Of a stretch of DNA of 64,000 nt, positions 3,733 to 16,281 are shown one piece after another. Source of the DNA: Chloroflexota bacterium (lineage in GTDB: Bacteria; Chloroflexota; Chloroflexia; Chloroflexales; Roseiflexaceae); NCBI GenBank assembly GCA_039805565.1, contig JBDLTZ010000100.1, positions 3,487 through 67,486 of the forward strand. The letters run 5' to 3'. Numbering within the stretch: position 1 is the first letter of the stretch; the number at the start of each line of letters is the position of its first letter. Made by a program: the position numbers and the translations under genes. Below the pieces are notes generated by a model. That model was not told the origin of the DNA. It saw only the letters and a program-made list of their open reading frames with translations, and did not search any database.

Positions 3733-6700
3733 CTACGGGCAGGTCTCGCGGTAGCGGACGCCCGGCAGGTAGCGCTCCCACTCCGCGGCGGTCATGCTCC
3801 GCCCGGCCACCGCGCACGCGAGCCCAAGCAGCTCCCCCTGGTCGGCCGGGAGCTGCGCCTCCTGCGGCAGCGGGCGGGCCAGCTCCCACACGCGCGCCGT
3901 GCCGTCGCCGCTGCCGGTGACCGCCACCGGGCTACCCTCGGCGCTGATCGCCGCCGCGTTCACCGACCCCTCGTGGCCGCGCAGCAGGAGCGCCTGAGTC
4001 CCGGGGTCCTGCAGCGAGAGATCCCACAGCCGCGCCGTGTTGTCCTGGCTGGCGGTGAGCAGCCGGAGGCTGTCCGGCGCGAAGGCCAGCGCGGTGATTG
4101 CCCCGGTGTGACCGCGCAGCTCAGAGACCGCTGCGGCACTCTGGCCCCCCTCGACCTGCCACAGCCGCACCGTACCGTCGCGGGTGCCGTAGGCGATCCG
4201 GCTGCTGTCCGGGCTCACCGCCACCGTTGTGATGCCGTTGCCGCGCCCGCGCAGGATCTCCGGCCTGGTGCTGACGAAGCGGCCGTCGGCAATCTGCCAC
4301 AGGTGCGCATCACCGTCCACGCTGCCAGTTACGAACCAGCGCCCGTTCGGCGCGATCGCCGCCGTGGTCAGAGCGCCGCGCGGGTCGCTTGTGGTGAACG
4401 CACTGCCGGGATCGCTCAGGCGCCACAGCCGGCTCACCCCATCCGCTCCACCAGCCACGATCTGCTGTCCATCTGCACTCAGGGCTACCGCGCGCAGCGG
4501 GCTACGCCTGGAGCGCGGAGCCAGCACAGCCGGCGCGGCCGTGCCCTGGGTGCTCCAGACGCGCACGGTGCCGTCCTCGCTGGAGGTGGCTACGAAGCGG
4601 CCGTCGGCGCTCATGTCCATGTCCGTCACCGCGCCTCCGTGACCCGTGAGCTCGCGCGGCGCGGCCCCCGCGCCACGCAGGTCCCACAGGCGCGGAGTAT
4701 CAGCATCCTCGCCCGCGGTGGCCAGCCAGCGGCCGTCAGGACTCAGCTCCAACATTGTCACGGGGGCTGGGGCCGAGAGGCTCTGGCTGGGGGCGCCCGA
4801 CGCGGCAAGGTCCCACACCAGCACCGCCCCGTCCTCGGCCCCCGTCACCAGGGTGGCGCCATCACGCGAGACGGCGAGCGCCCGAATGGGGCCACTTGGC
4901 GCCACCAGGCCCTGCCCGCCAACGCGCGCAAGCTGGCCGCGCAGGGTGTCGTCGGCGATCGTGTCGAGCGGTGGGTCGGTCTGGCGGGCCACGTTGACCC
5001 CCTCGGAGGCCAGGAGCAGGCTGAGCTGCGGCTGCTGCTCAAAGACCGCCTGGGCCTCGGCGGCGAGCCGGCCGGAGGTGGCGGCGCGCTCGCCCTGGGT
5101 AGCGCGTGCGCGCTCGGCGACCGCCGTCGCCTGGTTGGCGATCGCCAGGGCCTCGCTGGTGGCGGCGGCGCGGGCGCTCTCACGGGAGCCAGCCTCGGCC
5201 GTCTGCAGCTCGACCGACTGCGCCTGGCTGGTCTGGGCGGCGGCCACGGCCGTGAACTGGGCCTCCGACGCCGCGGCGCGCTCGCGGTCGGCCACCTGGC
5301 GCTGCTGGTCCGCGGTGAAGGCCTGCTGGATCGCCAGGATCGAGAAGGCGATCGCCACGCCGCAGGCCACAGCCAGCGCCACAGCCAGAGCTCTGGCGCG
5401 TAGGGCCGCCCCGCGCTGGGTATCAGCCAGCTTCTCGGCCTGCTCGGCCTGGACCTGCGCGGCCCGGGCGAGCTGCTCGGCCTGGGCCTTCTGCACGCTC
5501 AGCGCCTCTGCCAGCTGGCGGTTCTGCTCGGCCTGGATCCAGCGTGACTCGGCCAGCTCCCGGGCCTGGCGCAGCTCACGCTGCTCGGCCTCGCGCCGCT
5601 GCCGCTCGGCCTCCTCGATGGCGGCGGCGCTCGCGTGCGTCAGCTCCGCCAGGGCCGGGGCATATCCCAGGTAGGCAGCCTCGGCGCTCACCAACCAGCG
5701 CTCAGCCTCCACGAGCTGGCTCTCGTCCAGCAGCCCCGCGCTGCCCCGCCCGAGCCGCACCCACTCGGCGGCCTTCGCCTCCAGCCGCCGCCTGGTCGCC
5801 ACGGCTGAGCGCTCGTCCTCCAGCCACTGCACCAGCGTCGGCCAGTTCCGCACCAGCGCCTCGTGCGCCAGCTCCACCTGAGCCAACGAGAGCGTGTCGC
5901 CCTCGGTCAGGCGCAGCAGCCGCGCCTGGACAAGCTTCTCCAGCACGCGGTCCACCCGGTCGCGCGCCTCGCCCCCCTGGTAGAGCACATCGCGGCGCAC
6001 AGGGTTGCTGGTGATCTCGAGGCCCTCGCCAGGACGCACGATCCGCAGCAGGATGCGGCGCGCAGTGACCTGGTCCTCGGGCAACAGGCTGTTGTAGAAA
6101 GCGTCGGCACTGCGCGCGAGGGCCAGCCGCCCGCCGCCCACGCGCCGGTAGGATTCCCAGGTGACGCGGTTGCGGTCGCGCTGCTCCCAGAGCTTGAGCA
6201 GGGTGAACTGGAGCAGCGGCAGCGCGGCCGGCTCGCCGAGCATGTCGTGCAGCAGGGCATCTACCACGCCCGGCTCGAACTTCAGGCCCACGAGCTCGGC
6301 CGGCTTCTCGATCGCCTCGCGCAGTTCGCTGGCGTTGAGCGGCATGAGCTGGACGCGGGTCCGCTCGAACCAGGCCTGGAGCGCCGGCGAGGTAGCGATG
6401 AAGCTCTCGAAGTCGCTCCGCATCGTGAGGACGATGAGGTGACGCGAGCCGTTCGGCTCCAGCAGCGCGAGCAGCCCATCCACGAAGGCCTGGCGAGCGC
6501 CCTCGTCCTCGCAGAGCGTGTAGAGCTCCTCGAACTGGTCGATGAACAGCACTGCCGGGGCGCCGCCGGTCTCGTCGAGCGCCCGCAGGAGCCAGGCCGG
6601 GTCCTCGCGCAGCCGGCGGGCGATGGCGGCGCTCTCCTCGGCAGGCTGGGACGAGGCCGCCGGGCTGGGGCTCTCGGCAGGCAGTCGGATCCCGAGCCGG

Positions 6701-7329
6701 CGCCGGAGCTGGCGGGCGAGGCTAAGGAGCGGCTCGGGTCCGGGGGTAAACGGCGGGACGTAGCGCCACTCGGCGCTTCCGAGCAGGGCGCCGTCCTTGA
6801 GCGCGGGGAGCAGACCGGCACGGATGACGGAGGACTTACCGCTACCCGAGGGCCCGACGAGCGCAAGCAGCGGCTGAGACTCGAGCTTCTGTACCAGCCA
6901 CTCGACCAGGCGGCGTCGGCCGTAGAAGGTATTCTGGTCGCGCTCGTTGAACGGGTCGAGCCCGAGGTAGGGGCAGGCATCGTCCGGGATCTCGGGCGCC
7001 TCGTTGGGGTCGAACTCCTCGAGCGTTGAGTCGGGCGGCTCGTAGCCGGCGCGGATCAGAATCGTGGACCAGTAGTCGAGCAGGCTCTGCGCCGCATCGC
7101 GCTCGCTGTCGTCGTCCAGGATAGCGCCCGCGGCCGTCCCGCGCTTGATCAAGTCCGCCGCGCGGGCGCAGAGCTCGGGCGTGTACCCCTCGCGCTGCGC
7201 CCGCTTCAGCAGGTCGGCGTGTGCGGCGCGCAGCGCGGCCAGCGAGGGGAATGGGTGCGGGGCAGCTCCGGCGGCTGGCTCCGCAGCCGATAGGCCGAGC
7301 GGTGGGACAGATCTATCGGTCTCGCTCAT
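3733..7329 (-). CDS. STAND-type P-loop NTPase with coiled coil, single TM helix and C-terminal WD40 beta-propeller (8 repeats)
   Basis: Walker A GPSGSGKSS lies at aa 159-167 (nt about 6829-6855) and the Walker B-like VLFIDQFEE at aa 260-268. An Ala/Gln/Glu-rich coiled coil spans aa 570-760, interrupted by the hydrophobic stretch ALAVALAVACGVAIAFSILAI (nt 5329-5391). Eight repeats ending in WD/WS/WR/WQ/WE span aa 812-1150. The C-terminal tail reads AAEWERYLPGVRYRETCP. The ATG at 7329 lies 18 nt after the CHAT gene stop, with GAGAGG upstream. Confidence 0.85.
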   Translation of the reverse strand: MSETDRSVPPLGLSAAEPAAGAAPHPFPSLAALRAAHADLLKRAQREGYTPELCARAADLIKRGTAAGAILDDDSERDAAQSLLDYWSTILIRAGYEPPDSTLEEFDPNEAPEIPDDACPYLGLDPFNERDQNTFYGRRRLVEWLVQKLESQPLLALVGPSGSGKSSVIRAGLLPALKDGALLGSAEWRYVPPFTPGPEPLLSLARQLRRRLGIRLPAESPSPAASSQPAEESAAIARRLREDPAWLLRALDETGGAPAVLFIDQFEELYTLCEDEGARQAFVDGLLALLEPNGSRHLIVLTMRSDFESFIATSPALQAWFERTRVQLMPLNASELREAIEKPAELVGLKFEPGVVDALLHDMLGEPAALPLLQFTLLKLWEQRDRNRVTWESYRRVGGGRLALARSADAFYNSLLPEDQVTARRILLRIVRPGEGLEITSNPVRRDVLYQGGEARDRVDRVLEKLVQARLLRLTEGDTLSLAQVELAHEALVRNWPTLVQWLEDERSAVATRRRLEAKAAEWVRLGRGSAGLLDESQLVEAERWLVSAEAAYLGYAPALAELTHASAAAIEEAERQRREAEQRELRQARELAESRWIQAEQNRQLAEALSVQKAQAEQLARAAQVQAEQAEKLADTQRGAALRARALAVALAVACGVAIAFSILAIQQAFTADQQRQVADRERAAASEAQFTAVAAAQTSQAQSVELQTAEAGSRESARAAATSEALAIANQATAVAERARATQGERAATSGRLAAEAQAVFEQQPQLSLLLASEGVNVARQTDPPLDTIADDTLRGQLARVGGQGLVAPSGPIRALAVSRDGATLVTGAEDGAVLVWDLAASGAPSQSLSAPAPVTMLELSPDGRWLATAGEDADTPRLWDLRGAGAAPRELTGHGGAVTDMDMSADGRFVATSSEDGTVRVWSTQGTAAPAVLAPRSRRSPLRAVALSADGQQIVAGGADGVSRLWRLSDPGSAFTTSDPRGALTTAAIAPNGRWFVTGSVDGDAHLWQIADGRFVSTRPEILRGRGNGITTVAVSPDSSRIAYGTRDGTVRLWQVEGGQSAAAVSELRGHTGAITALAFAPDSLRLLTASQDNTARLWDLSLQDPGTQALLLRGHEGSVNAAAISAEGSPVAVTGSGDGTARVWELARPLPQEAQLPADQGELLGLACAVAGRSMTAAEWERYLPGVRYRETCP

Positions 7330-7347
7330 CGGCAGAGCCTCTCGCTG

Positions 7348-9420
7348 TCAGGAGGTCAGGAGCCGCAGCACAGCCGCGAGCGGCTCGCCGACCTTGCGCA
7401 GGTCGTCGGTCATCTTCTTCAGCTCGATGTCCACCCGGTAGAAGCGGTCGCCGGCCTGGCGGCGGAACCGGCGGAAGAAGTGACGCGTTTTGGCAGCGTC
7501 GGAGGCGGCGAGCGCCGCGTCGAGCTTGGCCGCGTCGGCCCGGAGCGCGCTCGTCCAGGTCTCCTCGATGCCTGTGTACAGCGGCGCGGCGAGGTCGCGC
7601 AGGTCCTCCCAGGAGAGCTCGAGCTCGCTGAGGTCGGCGTCGAGCGTGGCCTCGATCCGCCGCATCTCCAGGTCCACCGCCTGCCACGAGTCGTGCTCGC
7701 CCACCAGGGCGCCGAGCCGCACGCTCAGCCCGGCGAGGGCCACCACGCCCATCTCGAACTGGGCGACTTTGTCGGCGTCGAGCCGCAGCGAGGGCAGCCG
7801 CTCGCGCACGCGGGTGAGGCCGTGGGCCAGCGCCCCGAGGCGCAGCGAGCGGGCGGCAGCGTTGAGGCGGGCGTTGACCTGGGCCGGCTGGATGGTGAGC
7901 ACGCGGTTCAGCAGCCGCACGCCCTTCTTCAGCTGGCGCAGATCGAGCGTCTCGATCGCCCCTCCCAGGTCCGCGCGTGCAACCCCCAGATCCCACACCC
8001 AGGCCGTCTCGCCGGTGGCAAGGGTGGCGCGCCCCGCCACGCGCTCGAGCTGGTCCACGATCCCCTGGAGCGTGATCTCGTAGTTGCTCAGGTTCTCCCA
8101 GGCGCCCTCGTCGTCGGGCAGGCGGCGCACCTCCTGGACGATCGGGCTGTAGCAGTGGAACTGGAGCGAGTGCAGCTGATCGTGGATATCCTTGTAGTCC
8201 GCCATCAGCGCGATCTGCTCGCTGGCCGCCAGGAAGTCGGCGCGGAAGGCGATGACGTCCTCGCGCACGTCGTCGGCGGTGGCGATCAGGTCGCCGAGCG
8301 CGACGAGGCCGCTGCCGATCGAGTGGCTGCTCGCCGCCTGCACCGGGGGCGGCGTGGGCAGCAGGGGCGCGGCAGGGGCGGGCGGCTCGAAGAGGCGGCC
8401 GTCGGGGGCGCGGGTGTAGATGACCGGGATCCCCCAGTCGGGCCGGCGCAGCCCGGTGACGTTCATCACGGCGCGACGACCCTCGGTGACGCAGGCGTCG
8501 ATCGGTAGGGCCTCAGCGAGCACACGGTAGAACTCGGCGGCGAAGGCGCGGGTGGCCTCCTCAGGCACCTGGAACTGCATCGCTACCACCGCGGGCACCT
8601 GGGCGCGGATGAGCGCGGGGGCCACGGCGCGGAAGGAGTCGGTGGCGAGCTCGCCGCTGCCGCAGGCGTCGAGGACCACCAGGCGCAGGCCGCTGCGGTT
8701 GAGCATGACGTTGAGCTGGAGCGCGCTCACCGGCTCAGCCTCGCCGAACACATCCTCGAACAGCAGCGTCCCGCCGGCGTCACCTGAGGCACCGTGGCCG
8801 ACGAAGTGCCAGATGTGGAACCCCTCGCGCAGCAGCCGCTGGAGCTTGGCGGTGGTCAGGTGCGGCTCGACGGTCACCTCGACGAGGCCGGGGCGTGTGG
8901 CGAGCGCCTCCTGGACGGCCGCCAGCTCGCGCTCGACCTCGGCTGGCGGCGGGGTCTGCGCGGCGCTGAGCAGCACCTTGAGCGGCAGGGGCGCAGCGAG
9001 CGAGGGGATGCGGTCCTGCTGCGGCAGGTAGCGCACCACCGGGGCGTCGAGCAGCGCGAGCGGCCCCTGGTCCGGGTCGTAGAGGAACTCCCACGGCATG
9101 GCGTGAACGCCGGCCTCGGCGGGGGGGGCGGTGAGGCGGAGGCGCAGCCCCTGGTCCGGGCCGAGGATGCCCTGGCTACGGGTGTACACGTCCTTGGTAG
9201 GCCCGGCGAAGACGGCGAGGAAGAGCTCCCGGCCGATCTGCACGAGCGCCGCCTCATCAGTGTCTAGCCGCCGCAGCCGCCCGAGCAGCACCGCAAAGTC
9301 CTCCCCGCGGGGAAGCGTAAGGTAATCGCTGGCCTCGCCGCCCGGGCCGCGCACCGTAAGGGCGTAGCGTCCGGCGTCGAGCGCGCCGATGGCGATCTCG
9401 AAATCGAGGTACGATTTCAT
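7348..9420 (-). CDS. CHAT-domain (caspase-like) protease fused to an unassigned ~330-aa alpha-helical C-terminal domain
   Basis: A caspase-fold His/Cys dyad is present: WHFVGHG (His209, nt 8794-8796) and VVLDACGSG (Cys253, nt 8662-8664). The N-terminus MKSYLDFEIAIG...YALTV is typical of CHAT proteins. Residues 365-690 have no motif I recognise. Confidence 0.85.
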   Translation of the reverse strand: MKSYLDFEIAIGALDAGRYALTVRGPGGEASDYLTLPRGEDFAVLLGRLRRLDTDEAALVQIGRELFLAVFAGPTKDVYTRSQGILGPDQGLRLRLTAPPAEAGVHAMPWEFLYDPDQGPLALLDAPVVRYLPQQDRIPSLAAPLPLKVLLSAAQTPPPAEVERELAAVQEALATRPGLVEVTVEPHLTTAKLQRLLREGFHIWHFVGHGASGDAGGTLLFEDVFGEAEPVSALQLNVMLNRSGLRLVVLDACGSGELATDSFRAVAPALIRAQVPAVVAMQFQVPEEATRAFAAEFYRVLAEALPIDACVTEGRRAVMNVTGLRRPDWGIPVIYTRAPDGRLFEPPAPAAPLLPTPPPVQAASSHSIGSGLVALGDLIATADDVREDVIAFRADFLAASEQIALMADYKDIHDQLHSLQFHCYSPIVQEVRRLPDDEGAWENLSNYEITLQGIVDQLERVAGRATLATGETAWVWDLGVARADLGGAIETLDLRQLKKGVRLLNRVLTIQPAQVNARLNAAARSLRLGALAHGLTRVRERLPSLRLDADKVAQFEMGVVALAGLSVRLGALVGEHDSWQAVDLEMRRIEATLDADLSELELSWEDLRDLAAPLYTGIEETWTSALRADAAKLDAALAASDAAKTRHFFRRFRRQAGDRFYRVDIELKKMTDDLRKVGEPLAAVLRLLTS

Positions 9421-9459: not shown

Positions 9460-9468
9460 AGTATAGCA
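9460..9468 (-). promoter_or_regulatory. Candidate extended -10 promoter element (TGcTATACT) upstream of the CHAT/STAND operon
   Basis: The reverse complement of 9460-9468 reads TGCTATACT, about 40 nt upstream of the ATG at 9420. The same TGnTATAMT motif recurs upstream of other genes in the window. Confidence 0.4.
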
Positions 9469-9576: not shown

Positions 9577-9984
9577 CTACTCGTCGTCCGCGTCGCCCAC
9601 GCGCTCGGGGTTGGTGTCGCGGCCGATCAGCCGGTTCCAGAGCTGGTAGTCCACCTCGCTCTTGGGAATATACAGGTTCCCCTCACCGGCCGTCTGGTCG
9701 CCACGGGCCGTGAACTCGCGCAGCTGCGGGTCCTGGAAATCCACGTAGGTGGCGCCCTGCTGGAGCCGCTCGCCGGTAGGCACGATCGGGATGCGCTTCA
9801 GCTCGTCGTCGGTGAAGCCAGGGATCTGGCGGTGCATCCCCTTGTGCTCGTAGGCGTTGCGCGTGCGCTGGTCGGTGCGCTCGCCGTGGTGGCCGATGTT
9901 CTGGCCGGCGCGCGGGTCGGGGTTCAGGTCGCGCCGCCACTCCTCGGGGTGCTGCTCGCCCGGCGTATGCTGTTTCTCGGTCAT
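9577..9984 (-). CDS. Hypothetical protein (135 aa, charged, His-rich N-terminus)
   Basis: Clean ORF with a strong AGGAGG located 6 nt upstream of the ATG at 9984. No family recognised. Confidence 0.6.
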   Translation of the reverse strand: MTEKQHTPGEQHPEEWRRDLNPDPRAGQNIGHHGERTDQRTRNAYEHKGMHRQIPGFTDDELKRIPIVPTGERLQQGATYVDFQDPQLREFTARGDQTAGEGNLYIPKSEVDYQLWNRLIGRDTNPERVGDADDE

Positions 9985-10196
9985 GTGTGTACCTCCTGGA
10001 GCTTACCGGGTTGCAGGAAGCGTGCCCCGAAGGGAGGGGTGGGCCGGCCCGGCACACCCCCCTCTGCCGCCGGCCATGGATATGCTCAACGGTGGTATTG
10101 TATCCACCGCGCCCGCCGGCCCCGAGCCGGGGTGCCTGCCCCGAACACACCTCTGGCCCGCCGGGCGGGCTGATACCGTTCACCAGGAGGCTATCT

Positions 10197-11021
10197 ATGG
10201 CGCTCAACCAACCCTACCCGGACCTCGAGGAGCTACTCGCGTCGATCGGCGAGGCCGGCACGCGCCTGGCGGCGATCAACGCCAGCGAGGGCGGGGCCGG
10301 CAATATCTCGATGTACATCGGCTGGCCTATCGAGGTGCGCCGCCGCTTTCCGATGGCCGAGCCCTTCACCCTGCCGCAGCCCGCCCCCGGCCTGGCCGGT
10401 GGCCTGGTGATCGTCACCGGCTCGGGGCGGCGCCTGCGCGACATCCACACCAGCCCGGACGCCAACCTGGCGGCGGTGGCGATCGGCGAGGGCGGGAGGA
10501 CGGCGCAGCTCTACACCTCGCCGCGCCGCCTGTTCCAGCGCGTCACCAGCGAGTTCAACTCACACCTGGCCGTGCACCAGGACCAGGTGGCGCGCACTGG
10601 CACCAACTTTCTCGCCCTGATCCACGCCCAGCCGCCGCACCTGACCTACCTGAGCCATATCCCGGCCTACCGCGACCAGGCGTTCTTCAACCGGCGGCTC
10701 ATGCGCTGGGAGCCGGAGACGATCCTGAACCTGCCGCAGGGCATCGGCGTGCTGCCGTACTGCCTGCCGGGCTCACCGGCTATGATGGAGGCCAACATCG
10801 CCGGGCTGCGCGAGCACAACGTGGTGCTCTGGAGCAAGCACGGCGTCATGGCGCGCTCGGAGCTCTCGGCCACGCGCGCGGCCGACCGCATCGAGTACGC
10901 GGAGACGGCCGCGCTCTACGAGACGATGGACCTGGCGAACGGGCAGCGCGGCGAGGGGCTGACCGACGACGAGCTGCGCGAGATCGTGCGCGCCTTCGGA
11001 GTGCAGACGACACTGATCTGA
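10197..11021 (+). CDS. Class II aldolase/adducin family protein, rhamnulose-1-phosphate aldolase (RhaD)-like
   Basis: ORF 9987..11021. The ATG at 10197 is preceded by AGGAGG. The 274-aa protein has blocks that look collinear with RhaD as I recall it: GGAGNIS, VIVTGSGRRLRDI..PDANLA, TSEFNSHL, GIGVLPYCLPGS, VVLWSKHGVM, LTDDELREIVRAFGV. Confidence 0.7.
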   Translation: MALNQPYPDLEELLASIGEAGTRLAAINASEGGAGNISMYIGWPIEVRRRFPMAEPFTLPQPAPGLAGGLVIVTGSGRRLRDIHTSPDANLAAVAIGEGGRTAQLYTSPRRLFQRVTSEFNSHLAVHQDQVARTGTNFLALIHAQPPHLTYLSHIPAYRDQAFFNRRLMRWEPETILNLPQGIGVLPYCLPGSPAMMEANIAGLREHNVVLWSKHGVMARSELSATRAADRIEYAETAALYETMDLANGQRGEGLTDDELREIVRAFGVQTTLI

Positions 11022-11142
11022 ACGGCGAATGGACAAGACCGAGGCCCTCTCGGCGGTCGCTGGCGACGGCGGTCAACGCCCCCTCGACATCGAGCGGTCC
11101 GCTCACAGTGCGAAGCTGGTCCGTGTGGCATTCATCGCGTCG

Positions 11143-11345
11143 GGGGGTGCGCCTGGAGATCAGCCGCGACCCGGCGCCTGTTCCAGCCGTTCGTGCAGCT
11201 GGCCCCGCAGCTAGAGCGCGAGCAGGTCGGCACAGGGCTGGGCCCGGTACTGCTGAAGCAGTTGGCCGAGCTCCACGACGGCGGGGTCAGTGCGGTGAGT
11301 GCGACGGGGGCCGGGACCAGCTTCACAGTAACGCTGCCGTGGTGC
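11143..11345 (+). pseudogene. Degenerate fragment of a histidine-kinase HATPase_c domain
   Basis: Split over two frames: GGVRLEISRDPAP.. / ..FQPFVQLAPQLEREQVGTGLGPVLLKQLAELHDGGVSAVSATGAGTSFTVTLPW. This parallels the C-terminus of the downstream kinase (GGAVRLEIT...FQPFVQVEGG...GGVGLGLTLVQRLVDLHGGSVSLESTPGEGSRFSVHLPW), but the G1 box region is missing. Confidence 0.55.
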
Positions 11346-11539
11346 CGGCCGTGCCATACTCCCGTGCACCCCTGTGTGCTGCGTAGGCCATCCGTGACGC
11401 GAGCGTACGTGAGGTGTATGATGTCCACGTGCGGAAAACTCCGGATGGGCAGGCGCCTTCCCGCATGGTATGCTCCTCACATTGGCGCTCGCGCTTGATA
11501 CGCTGTCGCAGCTGTCAGTTACTGTTACAGGACTTGACT

Positions 11540-14695: not shown

Positions 14696-16246
14696 CTACG
14701 CCCGAATCACCGTTATGACACGTCCCGAGGGAGCGGTAACCTCATCAGCGCGTGTACGCTCAGCAATCGCTGGCTGTCCCCGTCGTTGGTCGAACACCAC
14801 CAGCCACCCGGTGTCCAGGCTCAACCCTGCCAGGTAGCCATCGAGCTGCGCGACCCCCTCTTCCCGCGGGTCTGCTCGACCATCACGCCACACCTTCAGC
14901 TCGATCGGCAGCCGCTCTCCCCGATAGCTCAGCAGCAAATCGACTCGGTCGATGCCGACCATACTCTCGCGCTGGACCTGCCCGCCCCCGTTCGCCACCC
15001 GATCCAGGAACGCCTGCAGGACGAGCTGTGGCGCGATCTCGTGATACGGTGTCGTCCCAAGCAGTGGCTGTCCGTGCTCGCGCCAGAAGTGCAGAAACGC
15101 CGTCAGCAACGCATTCCGGTCCAGACGTCCGTCTAACGTCAGCCAGGTCGGCCTGAGCGCCGGCAGGAAGGCGCGTGTGGTCGTCGTGAGCGAGCGCGGG
15201 ATGACCGCCTCGTAGATCGGATTGGCGATCACCAGCCCCTGTGCCGGGTCCATCCGCACGAGCCCCAGATCCTGCACAAAGCGAATGTCATCCACAGGCA
15301 GGTCGGAGGGGATCGTGCCGGCGAGGAGCGGCTCGATAACCGCCCGGATACGCGGCTCGCGCAACCGGTCAGCCAGGCTGTCAAGGTGCGTCTCCTGCCG
15401 CGCGATGATGACCGCTTTGGCTTGGTCGATGATCACGTCGGTGATAGCTTGGCTGCGATCCAGCATGAGCTCTTCGACGGCGACCTTGGCGAGCGCGTTG
15501 ACGAGCCAGGGCTGCCCCTGGGTCAGCGTAAAGGCGTGCGCCAGCGCTGCCGGCGTGAACAGCTGTCCCGTCGCCGTCGTGTGCTGCTGATAGAGGGCCT
15601 CCACATCGGCGGCGCTGAAGTTCCCCAGGGTGAGCGAACGGGCTTTGATGTTGAAGGGGCTGGCGGTGGTGAGCCGCTCACTCCCACCAGCAGCAACCTT
15701 ATAGTCGCGTACGTCGCGGAGCCCAATCAAGGCAAGCGCCCAGGGGAAGTCGGTTGGGCGCCGTCGGTAGCCATCACGAAGCTGGCGCAACACCGAGATG
15801 AGTGCATCGTTCTCGAGGGCATCGATCTCATCAAGAAAGACGACGAGCGGGCGTTGACAGGTCTGCGACCAGGCACGTAGGGCGGCACCAATACGACGAC
15901 CGGGAGCGGCATTTGGCCACACGGGTGGCTGCAGGTCAGGCGGGAGCTGATGCTCAGCATCATCGCGCCAGGAGTCCAGTATCGCGTTCTCTGCCTGTCC
16001 GGGGTCATCTGAAAAGGGTGCGCCGACTTCGGCTGAGACAATCACCGCAGCGTAGCGGCCGGAGACGGTGAGCAGGCGGCCGAGCTCGAGCATCGCGGTG
16101 GTCTTGCCGCTCTGGCGGGGGGCGTGGAGCACGAAGTAGCTCTGCTGGTCGATCAGCCGCATGACTTCGGGCAGGCGCTCGGTCGCGGGCAGCATGTAGT
16201 GAATGTCAGGGCGACAGGGGCCGGCGACGTTGAACCAGCGAGCCAT
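14696..16246 (-). CDS. Predicted AAA-ATPase with C-terminal PD-(D/E)XK nuclease-like domain
   Basis: The N-terminus reads ARWFNVAGPCRPDIHYMLP, followed by Walker A APRQSGKTT and Walker B VVFLDEIDAL. The C-terminus IDRVDLLL...LPIELKVW resembles a D..E.K nuclease motif. ATG 16246 is preferred over GTG 16255 because GGAGAAAGG lies upstream. Confidence 0.7.
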   Translation of the reverse strand: MARWFNVAGPCRPDIHYMLPATERLPEVMRLIDQQSYFVLHAPRQSGKTTAMLELGRLLTVSGRYAAVIVSAEVGAPFSDDPGQAENAILDSWRDDAEHQLPPDLQPPVWPNAAPGRRIGAALRAWSQTCQRPLVVFLDEIDALENDALISVLRQLRDGYRRRPTDFPWALALIGLRDVRDYKVAAGGSERLTTASPFNIKARSLTLGNFSAADVEALYQQHTTATGQLFTPAALAHAFTLTQGQPWLVNALAKVAVEELMLDRSQAITDVIIDQAKAVIIARQETHLDSLADRLREPRIRAVIEPLLAGTIPSDLPVDDIRFVQDLGLVRMDPAQGLVIANPIYEAVIPRSLTTTTRAFLPALRPTWLTLDGRLDRNALLTAFLHFWREHGQPLLGTTPYHEIAPQLVLQAFLDRVANGGGQVQRESMVGIDRVDLLLSYRGERLPIELKVWRDGRADPREEGVAQLDGYLAGLSLDTGWLVVFDQRRGQPAIAERTRADEVTAPSGRVITVIRA

Positions 16247-16281
16247 ACCAAGCACCTTTCTCCGAGGGAGACAGTGGTGTC

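Follow-up and report, generated by a model that had tools for sequence, protein, structure and literature searches.

A constant helical domain carried behind interchangeable effector heads and predicted to dock onto a trans-encoded nSTAND1 protein

In a 64,000-nucleotide (nt) stretch of DNA from a Chloroflexota bacterium of the Roseiflexaceae (assembly GCA_039805565.1, contig JBDLTZ010000100.1, positions 3,487 to 67,486 of the forward strand; hereafter the window, numbered from its first letter), we characterised a pair of genes encoding a caspase-like CHAT protease joined to a large C-terminal helical domain, which we call X, and a STAND NTPase that begins with a smaller helical domain, which we call A4. 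The two genes are co-directional and lie 18 nt apart, consistent with an operon. Their features, with the basis of the assignments in brackets, are as follows.

7348–9420, minus strand: CHAT-X gene, a stop-free open reading frame (ORF) of 690 amino acids (aa) (translation)
8386–9420, minus strand: N-terminal head, residues 1–345, a small beta unit and helices followed by the CHAT caspase-like protease (Pfam, conservation, model)
8329–8385, minus strand: Pro-rich flexible linker, residues 346–364 (sequence, and predicted local distance difference test, pLDDT, below 50 at residues 350–362)
7351–8328, minus strand: X domain, residues 365–690, all-helical, constant across its family and predicted to dock onto the STAND protein (AlphaFold2, AF2, and homologue search)
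7330–7347, minus strand: spacer of 18 nt from the CHAT-X stop codon to the STAND ATG
3733–7329, minus strand: STAND partner gene, 1198 aa
6976–7272, minus strand: A4 domain, STAND residues about 20–118, helical, the predicted X-binding site (conservation and complex model)
5746–6972, minus strand: nSTAND1 NTPase module, residues 120–528 (Pfam PF20703, E 2.6e-113)
5326–5394, minus strand: predicted single transmembrane (TM) helix, residues about 646–668 (Kyte-Doolittle 19-residue mean 2.65)
3736–4902, minus strand: C-terminal WD40 beta-propeller, from about residue 810 to the end (Pfam WD40, eight stretches, E 1.2e-58)

The protease is recognised by the Pfam CHAT model over aa 90–323 of the 690-aa protein (E 2.7e-27), and in 60 orthologues conservation is at least 90% at H209 and C253, the positions of its His/Cys dyad. 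The head of the window protein is apparently an active protease. A Pro-rich stretch, PPAPAAPLLPTPPPV, at residues 346–360 leads from the head towards X. An earlier reading of this DNA from its letters alone (the sequence-only reading) had cited this linker together with two peptide segments, all of which are present in the translation, and had placed an unassigned helical domain at 7351–8328, which corresponds exactly to residues 365–690 and is one confidently folded, all-helical domain according to AF2. Modelled alone with an alignment of 149 sequences, X reaches a mean pLDDT of 96.6 and a predicted template modelling score (pTM) of 0.92, and has 12 helices, three of them 39–48 residues long, with helical structure continuing up to the final residue; the domain, about 326–331 aa in length, is folded as one rigid unit. 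The helical character described earlier is therefore borne out, while the pattern that had been called heptad-like is that of a globular helical bundle and not of a coiled coil. Upstream of the gene, a candidate extended -10-like motif, TGCTATACT, lies at 9460–9468 on the minus strand, ~40 nt 5' of the CHAT-X start codon.

X belongs to a large family whose N-terminal portions vary. A HMMER scan of 1.84 billion representative proteins in 50%-identity clusters matched X in 1344 clusters with E ≤ 1e-3, of which 982 pass E ≤ 1e-10 and 464 pass E ≤ 1e-30, well beyond chance expectation, and X extends to the C-terminus in 208 of the 214 homologues that were collected. A tblastn search of plasmids and phages with X gave no match. 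Among 128 N-terminal regions, Pfam identified TIR_2 in 40, CHAT in 23, EAD7 in 12, EAD10 and EAD1 in seven each, DUF4062 in three, EAD9 in two, and Pkinase, HEPN_Swt1, BTAD and a ParA-like NTPase in one each; some family members consist of little beyond X. The fusions of X to other effectors that the sequence-only reading had envisaged thus exist, with TIR, EAD, kinase and HEPN heads, as do near-standalone forms beside nSTAND1. That reading had also considered that the helical region might be missing from otherwise orthologous CHAT–STAND pairs, and here the outcome is the opposite, with helical X constant and CHAT variable. On a tree of X with 89 labelled tips, the head class (CHAT, TIR or EAD1/7) switches at least 19 times (mean after shuffling, 38.9), and the well-supported branches alone force at least nine changes for CHAT, six for TIR and three for EAD, while X remains 42–60% identical across members with different heads. 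These repeated changes indicate that X is a constant chassis, on which CHAT is one interchangeable head among many.

The variety of heads bears on one proposed role, that of a cis autoinhibitor, in which X would mask the CHAT active site until the STAND protein removes it. X is fused in cis to the protease, and the sequence-only reading had suggested this role; however, unrelated heads such as TIR, EADs, a kinase and HEPN could not all be specifically masked by X, and standalone as well as EAD-only forms of X occur. The model of full-length CHAT-X, moreover, has a pTM of 0.58 despite a mean pLDDT of 88, showing two well-folded domains joined by a disordered linker (pLDDT below 50 at residues 350–362), which argues against a fixed autoinhibitory interface between CHAT and X. 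We consider this role highly improbable.

The gene downstream of CHAT-X encodes both a P-loop nucleotide-binding oligomerisation domain (NOD) of the nSTAND1 type and C-terminal repeats (eight WD40 stretches), the partner architecture of a STAND/NLR-like two-gene conflict system; PADLOC gave only weak matches to this protein and has no model for X. Its WD40 propeller is presumed to be the sensor. The predicted TM helix is bordered by Ala/Gln/Glu/Arg-rich stretches that appear helical or coiled-coil by eye, and if the NTPase is cytoplasmic, the propeller would be the extracytoplasmic sensor of a membrane-spanning STAND protein. The A4 domain carries the motifs FPSLAALRAAH and AQSxLDYW and is kept in every partner STAND examined. 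It has no match in Pfam or in the PDB, and a profile comparison of A4 with X (hhalign) gave a probability of 0.2%, i.e. no similarity. All 33 of its 33 database homologues are nSTAND1 proteins, with A4 nearly always at the extreme N-terminus.

Across Chloroflexota, Cyanobacteriota and metagenomes, 32 loci have an X gene directly upstream of an A4-bearing gene, which encodes nSTAND1 in 31 of them. Twelve of these loci come from Chloroflexota genomes and metagenomes, with nSTAND1 in all 12, and 20 from Cyanobacteriota, where X is followed by an A4 gene in 20 of 20 and nSTAND1 is recognisable in 19; the cyanobacterial loci are relatives retrieved with a single X query, and their hosts include Anabaena, Nostoc, Calothrix PCC 7103, Brasilonema, Leptolyngbya JSC-1, Stigonema and Nodosilinea PCC 7104. 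Four further genomes of the window's phylum show the same order, X and then A4-nSTAND1. Pairing is independent of the head, as metagenomic contigs with the X–A4 pair carry TIR-X, EAD1-X, Pkinase-X, CHAT-X or near-standalone X.

Some cyanobacterial copies appear broken or rearranged (L054:6651-7789; L045:5728-6992; L040; L047, L056; L053). An insert of ~1.1 kb interrupts X in Nodosilinea PCC 7104, X lies in two frames in Nostoc FACHB-152, and the STAND gene is split in Brasilonema. In Calothrix PCC 7103 a single scaffold carries the same copy twice, the STAND ORF being 204 aa long in both, and in a Stigonema metagenome-assembled genome CHAT and X share a frame with TAG and TAA between them.

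Co-occurrence was assessed in 401 genomes that sample the phylum of the window evenly, with a cut-off of E ≤ 1e-20 for nSTAND1; the closest homologues are named Roseiflexaceae or Chloroflexota. By this measure nSTAND1 is present in 59 of the 401 genomes, in about 97 genes, whereas X (at strong E-values) and A4 are both confined to one set of five genomes, once each and as adjacent genes. The A4 profile was built from the partner STANDs, so its presence in these five genomes is given by construction, and it is its absence from the other ~92 nSTAND1 genes that is informative. In genomes with several nSTAND1 genes (for example G011, with four), A4 is restricted to the copy adjacent to X; the genome of the window itself has one X and one true nSTAND1.

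The sequence-only reading had proposed modelling X in complex with the N-terminus of the STAND protein. Prediction of STAND residues 1–130 (32-row alignment) together with X (149 rows) gave interface scores (ipSAE) of 0.81, 0.65 and 0.72, with a median of 0.72, while the highest score among three controls was 0.01. Of 80 solved complexes 58 attain that mark, as do 2 of 110 mismatched pairs, a calibration that is only rough for custom alignments such as these. At least 41% of contacts are in common between the runs, and the pLDDT of the partner is at least 70. Memory of a known complex is an unlikely explanation, since neither chain has a solved sequence homologue. The predicted interface involves STAND residues 34–45 and 79–102, taking in the AQSLLDYW...R motif, and X residues at about 470–477, 506–521 and 580–606; the best-defined pairs (X–STAND) include 588–86, 584–89/90 and 580–93, the last of which would place the invariant Q580 of X in contact with the near-invariant R93 of STAND. 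On the STAND side, interface residues are more conserved than the remainder (3.19 against 2.59 bits, permutation p=0.0075). The model supports binding of X to A4 without showing it.

X has no recognisable relatives among known families. Residues 360–690 gave zero matches in Pfam (E ≤ 1), NCBIfam and PADLOC, in agreement with the earlier statement that no HEPN, TPR, EAD or nucleotide-binding motif could be named in the region. When 24 diverse members were compared with Pfam, we found scattered single matches only (E > 0.005), none of them consistent, and no EAD model matched within X in any of the 24. A sequence-profile search of the PDB returned de novo designed helical proteins only, at E about 0.003. 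Foldseek, a check that had been proposed for residues 365–690, found no confident structure match to any known family: nothing at E ≤ 1e-3 in the PDB (best TMq 0.28) and nothing in BFVD. The VIA-align fold search, which covered 48,161 chains and has a stated helical-bundle noise level of Z about 13, retrieved generic four-helix bundles only, aligned to model residues 34–169, with de novo designs at the top (Z 14.2). X is thus without a known family or a specific fold match in these models and searches, although we do not claim a novel fold for it. Nor did we find a description of X in the papers searched on nSTAND1, on EACC1/EACC2 and on STAND NTPases with CHAT, TIR, adaptors or two-gene layouts, supplementary tables being outside that scope.

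Weak structural likenesses to elongated helical bundles raise the alternative of an effector role for X itself, for instance as a latent membrane-active bundle that is freed or activated by CHAT or recruited through EADs. Whole-domain alignments to the type III secretion system tip proteins IpaD and SipD have Z 10.5–10.9 over about 200 aa, with a root-mean-square deviation (rmsd) of about 4, and partial ones are found to ClyA (Z 10.8 over 119 aa), MakA (Z 10.8 over 133 aa) and XaxB (Z 8.7, rmsd 6.6). The occurrence of EAD-X architectures fits such a role, as EADs are usually fused to effectors under the EAD principle (PMC8195603), and so does the predicted membrane anchoring of the partner STAND. 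All of these Z-scores, however, lie under the helical-bundle noise level, de novo four-helix designs come first in the search, and no hydrophobic segment is conserved in the X family: the best 19-residue window has a median hydropathy of 1.13 and rises above 1.6 in only 5% of members. The X of the window has a best hydropathy window of 1.69 at residues 555–573, which is not kept in the family. An effector role would also mean that TIR-X and CHAT-X each hold two effectors, and it is the heads that are swapped, X being the part that stays constant beside STAND. We regard it as quite unlikely.

Several polar residues of X are strongly conserved. Across 149 diverse members, H413, D414 and Q580 never vary, and conservation reaches at least 90% at K410, H417, H576 and D664; the invariant or near-invariant set also includes W474, P512, N516, D577, W579, W604, W622, F649, F660 and C671. 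As K410, H413, D414 and H417 are spaced i, i+3, i+4 and i+7 (K-x2-HD-x2-H), they share one helical face. These residues suggest that X might be a sensor or regulatory third component, which would bind a ligand, a metal or an invader through K410/H413/D414/H417 together with H576, D577 and Q580 and then license the STAND protein or the head, a role that is compatible with docking. The face lies outside the predicted A4 interface, the domain is large at 330 aa, and one clade of X occupies the third-gene slot behind a MoxR–vWA pair (detailed below); in ternary systems, coordination and sensing roles have been assigned to constant components of the VMAP, iSTAND and GAP1 type (PMC7159879). Against this, the STAND protein already has a WD40 sensor, and the strong conservation of X (42–60% identity) differs from invader-binding modules, which usually diversify. 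Metal-dependent HD phosphohydrolases are marked by an H...HD...D motif set in the HD fold or by an HD profile match; X conserves H413-D414, H417, H576-D577 and D664, has no Pfam HD match (E ≤ 1), and is without an HD protein among the fold matches listed, where no specific enzyme or ligand-binding fold stood out. Sensor domains are represented only by McpS and McpZ, whose matches are partial and no stronger than helical-bundle noise. A sensor or regulatory role for X is rather unlikely in our estimation.

Of the three roles that had been offered at the outset, sensor, autoinhibitory module and adaptor, the evidence favours the last, owing to the strict synteny with A4-nSTAND1, the exclusive co-occurrence and the controlled complex prediction; autoinhibition is disfavoured by the varied heads and by the lack of confident CHAT–X packing. 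We think it probable that X acts as a heterotypic docking module, by which an effector head is tethered to A4 on the cognate nSTAND1 protein. X would be the constant half of a two-gene, split system resembling nucleotide-binding leucine-rich repeat (NLR) proteins: a soluble helical module that binds A4, the ~100-aa helical N-terminus of the nSTAND1-TM-WD40 protein whose gene starts 18 nt downstream, with the Pro-rich linker permitting it to carry interchangeable heads, CHAT here and TIR, kinase or HEPN in relatives. Where the head is an EAD, it may in turn recruit EAD-tagged effectors. When the WD40 propeller senses a trigger, the STAND protein would oligomerise and bring the X-bound heads together for activation by proximity, in this case of CHAT, much as caspase-9 is activated on the apoptosome or TIR domains on NLRs, so that the usual effector-NOD-sensor layout would be rebuilt in trans through X–A4. 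The analysis shows the fold, the family, the swapping of heads, the synteny and the exclusive co-occurrence, and the X–A4 contact is predicted by modelling; proximity activation, the trigger and the targets of the protease are steps that we infer.

A natural rearrangement fits this docking model. In genome G250, an EAD7-X gene adjoins A4-nSTAND1 and a separate EAD7-CHAT gene lies elsewhere in the genome, as if the CHAT-X of the window had been split at an EAD pair, an arrangement in keeping with a STAND-docking X that has CHAT for its cargo. The same genome has six EAD7 matches, including the EAD7-CHAT protein and two EAD7-carrying NTPases, an EAD7 network around the X system (L031:334-1800 (-), L029, L030).

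Several points weigh against the docking model. Binding of X to the STAND protein is a prediction from modelling, and 330 aa is very large for a mere adaptor. The most conserved polar face (K410, H413, D414, H417) lies outside the predicted interface, which suggests that X probably does more than dock. On the X side the interface shows no excess conservation (1.63 against 2.11 bits elsewhere, p=0.98): Q580 is its only invariant residue, and R506, S603, R588 and R518 are 64–83% conserved. Buried core residues raise the background of this test, and a variable X interface would also be the pattern of a co-evolving, partner-specific surface across diverse systems. Synteny and co-occurrence of X and A4 could partly reflect vertical inheritance of one operon, and the 20 cyanobacterial loci are all relatives of one query. 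Two architectures, finally, depart from the pairing. The P0075/P0268 clade (metagenome contigs L036:4408-8068 and L032:5840-9500) has X behind a MoxR (AAA_5) and vWA (CoxE-like) pair, with NACHT-HEAT and EAD10 proteins and a caspase upstream and no A4 or nSTAND1 on the contig; this X takes the VMAP-like position of third component in the ternary systems that Kaur et al. 2020 described (PMC7159879). P0269, a protein of 3033 aa without A4 (NCBI/Logan), has X at its N-terminus (aa 6–325), followed by CHAT, a caspase (Peptidase_C14), a NACHT/nSTAND-like NTPase, a second NTPase and Macro.

A remote variant in G192 (L025:1-3224 (-) = G192:C474) comprises a TIR protein (181 aa), then EAD1 with a partial X-like region (286 aa, E 3.5e-4), and a third gene in which an A4-like N-terminus (E 6.9e-9) is fused to Peripla_BP_6 and not to a STAND module; if real, it would take X::A4 pairing beyond nSTAND1.

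Comparison with known systems places X near, but outside, described families. Like EADs and Death-like domains (EAD1–11 and bacterial Death-like domains; Kaur, Burroughs, Iyer, Aravind 2020, 2021; PMC7159879, PMC8195603), X is a helical, non-enzymatic module with interchangeable TIR and caspase-like heads that is predicted to couple them to a STAND protein encoded alongside, and both EAD systems and X are enriched in filamentous, multicellular bacteria. Unlike EADs, which measure about 60–100 aa, X has about 330 aa and matches no EAD profile; EAD pairing is homotypic, whereas X–A4 would be heterotypic if real, as their profiles show no similarity, and X may itself carry an EAD. The X system is proposed to follow the logic of Apaf-1/caspase-9, which pair through CARD–CARD contacts: a WD40 sensor, a NOD, and an effector that induced proximity on an oligomer switches on. 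The TIR and caspase-like heads of X are domains typical of the N-termini of STAND, NLR and Avs proteins, where they are fused in cis. Unlike both Apaf-1/caspase-9 and the tripartite STANDs, the effector here is on a separate polypeptide with an X::A4 pair in place of a Death-fold, and the partner STAND has a predicted TM helix before its WD40 propeller. As an adaptor, X would work like an EAD or a CARD, yet by membership tests it is outside EAD, VMAP and EACC1.

VMAP resembles X as a constant module with variable N-terminal TIR, caspase or EAD heads, and one X clade stands directly behind MoxR–vWA. The VMAP-C domain is alpha+beta, with seven beta-strands plus helices (PMC7159879). We rejected this assignment, with VMAP-C compared by its description: X is all-alpha and C-terminal, has no VMAP Pfam match, and has no MoxR or vWA at its locus in the window. 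EACC1 and EACC2 (PMC7159879, PMC8195603; Evans et al. 2025, bioRxiv 10.1101/2025.11.14.688446) likewise accompany a caspase-like protease as the constant component of two-gene conflict systems. Of the two, EACC1 is a small domain with a single TM helix and makes pores once it has been cleaved, and EACC2 is alpha+beta and lies N-terminal to the caspase. Judged by these published descriptions X fits neither, being a 330-aa soluble helical bundle of low median hydropathy.

The other window genes near the pair, among them dehydrogenases and a hybrid histidine kinase, are unrelated to it and include neither MoxR nor vWA. About 5 kb from the operon, a 519-aa ORF at 14696–16255 on the minus strand has weak AAA_35, AAA_22 and AAA_16 matches and is possibly a STAND-like ATPase. 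Another ORF, of 509 aa at 9857–11386 on the plus strand, is without a Pfam match and, given DNA of 70% GC, may be no genuine gene.

Within prokaryotic immunity and programmed cell death, the NLR-like (STAND) systems of bacteria form a major arm that has been charted only in part. Coupling of a trans-encoded effector to the NTPase is so far known only for homotypic Death-like, CARD and EAD domains. X–A4 offers a testable alternative to homotypic coupling, in which a large, conserved and unnamed helical domain has a predicted, specific nSTAND1 partner. One extension of the docking model seems rather unlikely to us: that the heterotypic X–A4 pair, previously overlooked, defines a widespread split-NLR system for immunity or cell death in filamentous bacteria, and that X does more there than tether, its K-x2-HD-x2-H face gating release or activation of the head. 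That face would then be a second site, for metal or ligand binding or for catalysis, and X would be a new kind of regulated adaptor, present in at least 1300 clusters across Chloroflexota, Cyanobacteriota and many metagenomes. For the family as a whole, X supplies domain boundaries, candidate contact residues and natural head swaps, and gives an annotation to at least 1300 clusters of 'hypothetical' proteins, while A4 would flag a subclass of nSTAND1 proteins as dependent on an effector carrier encoded in trans.

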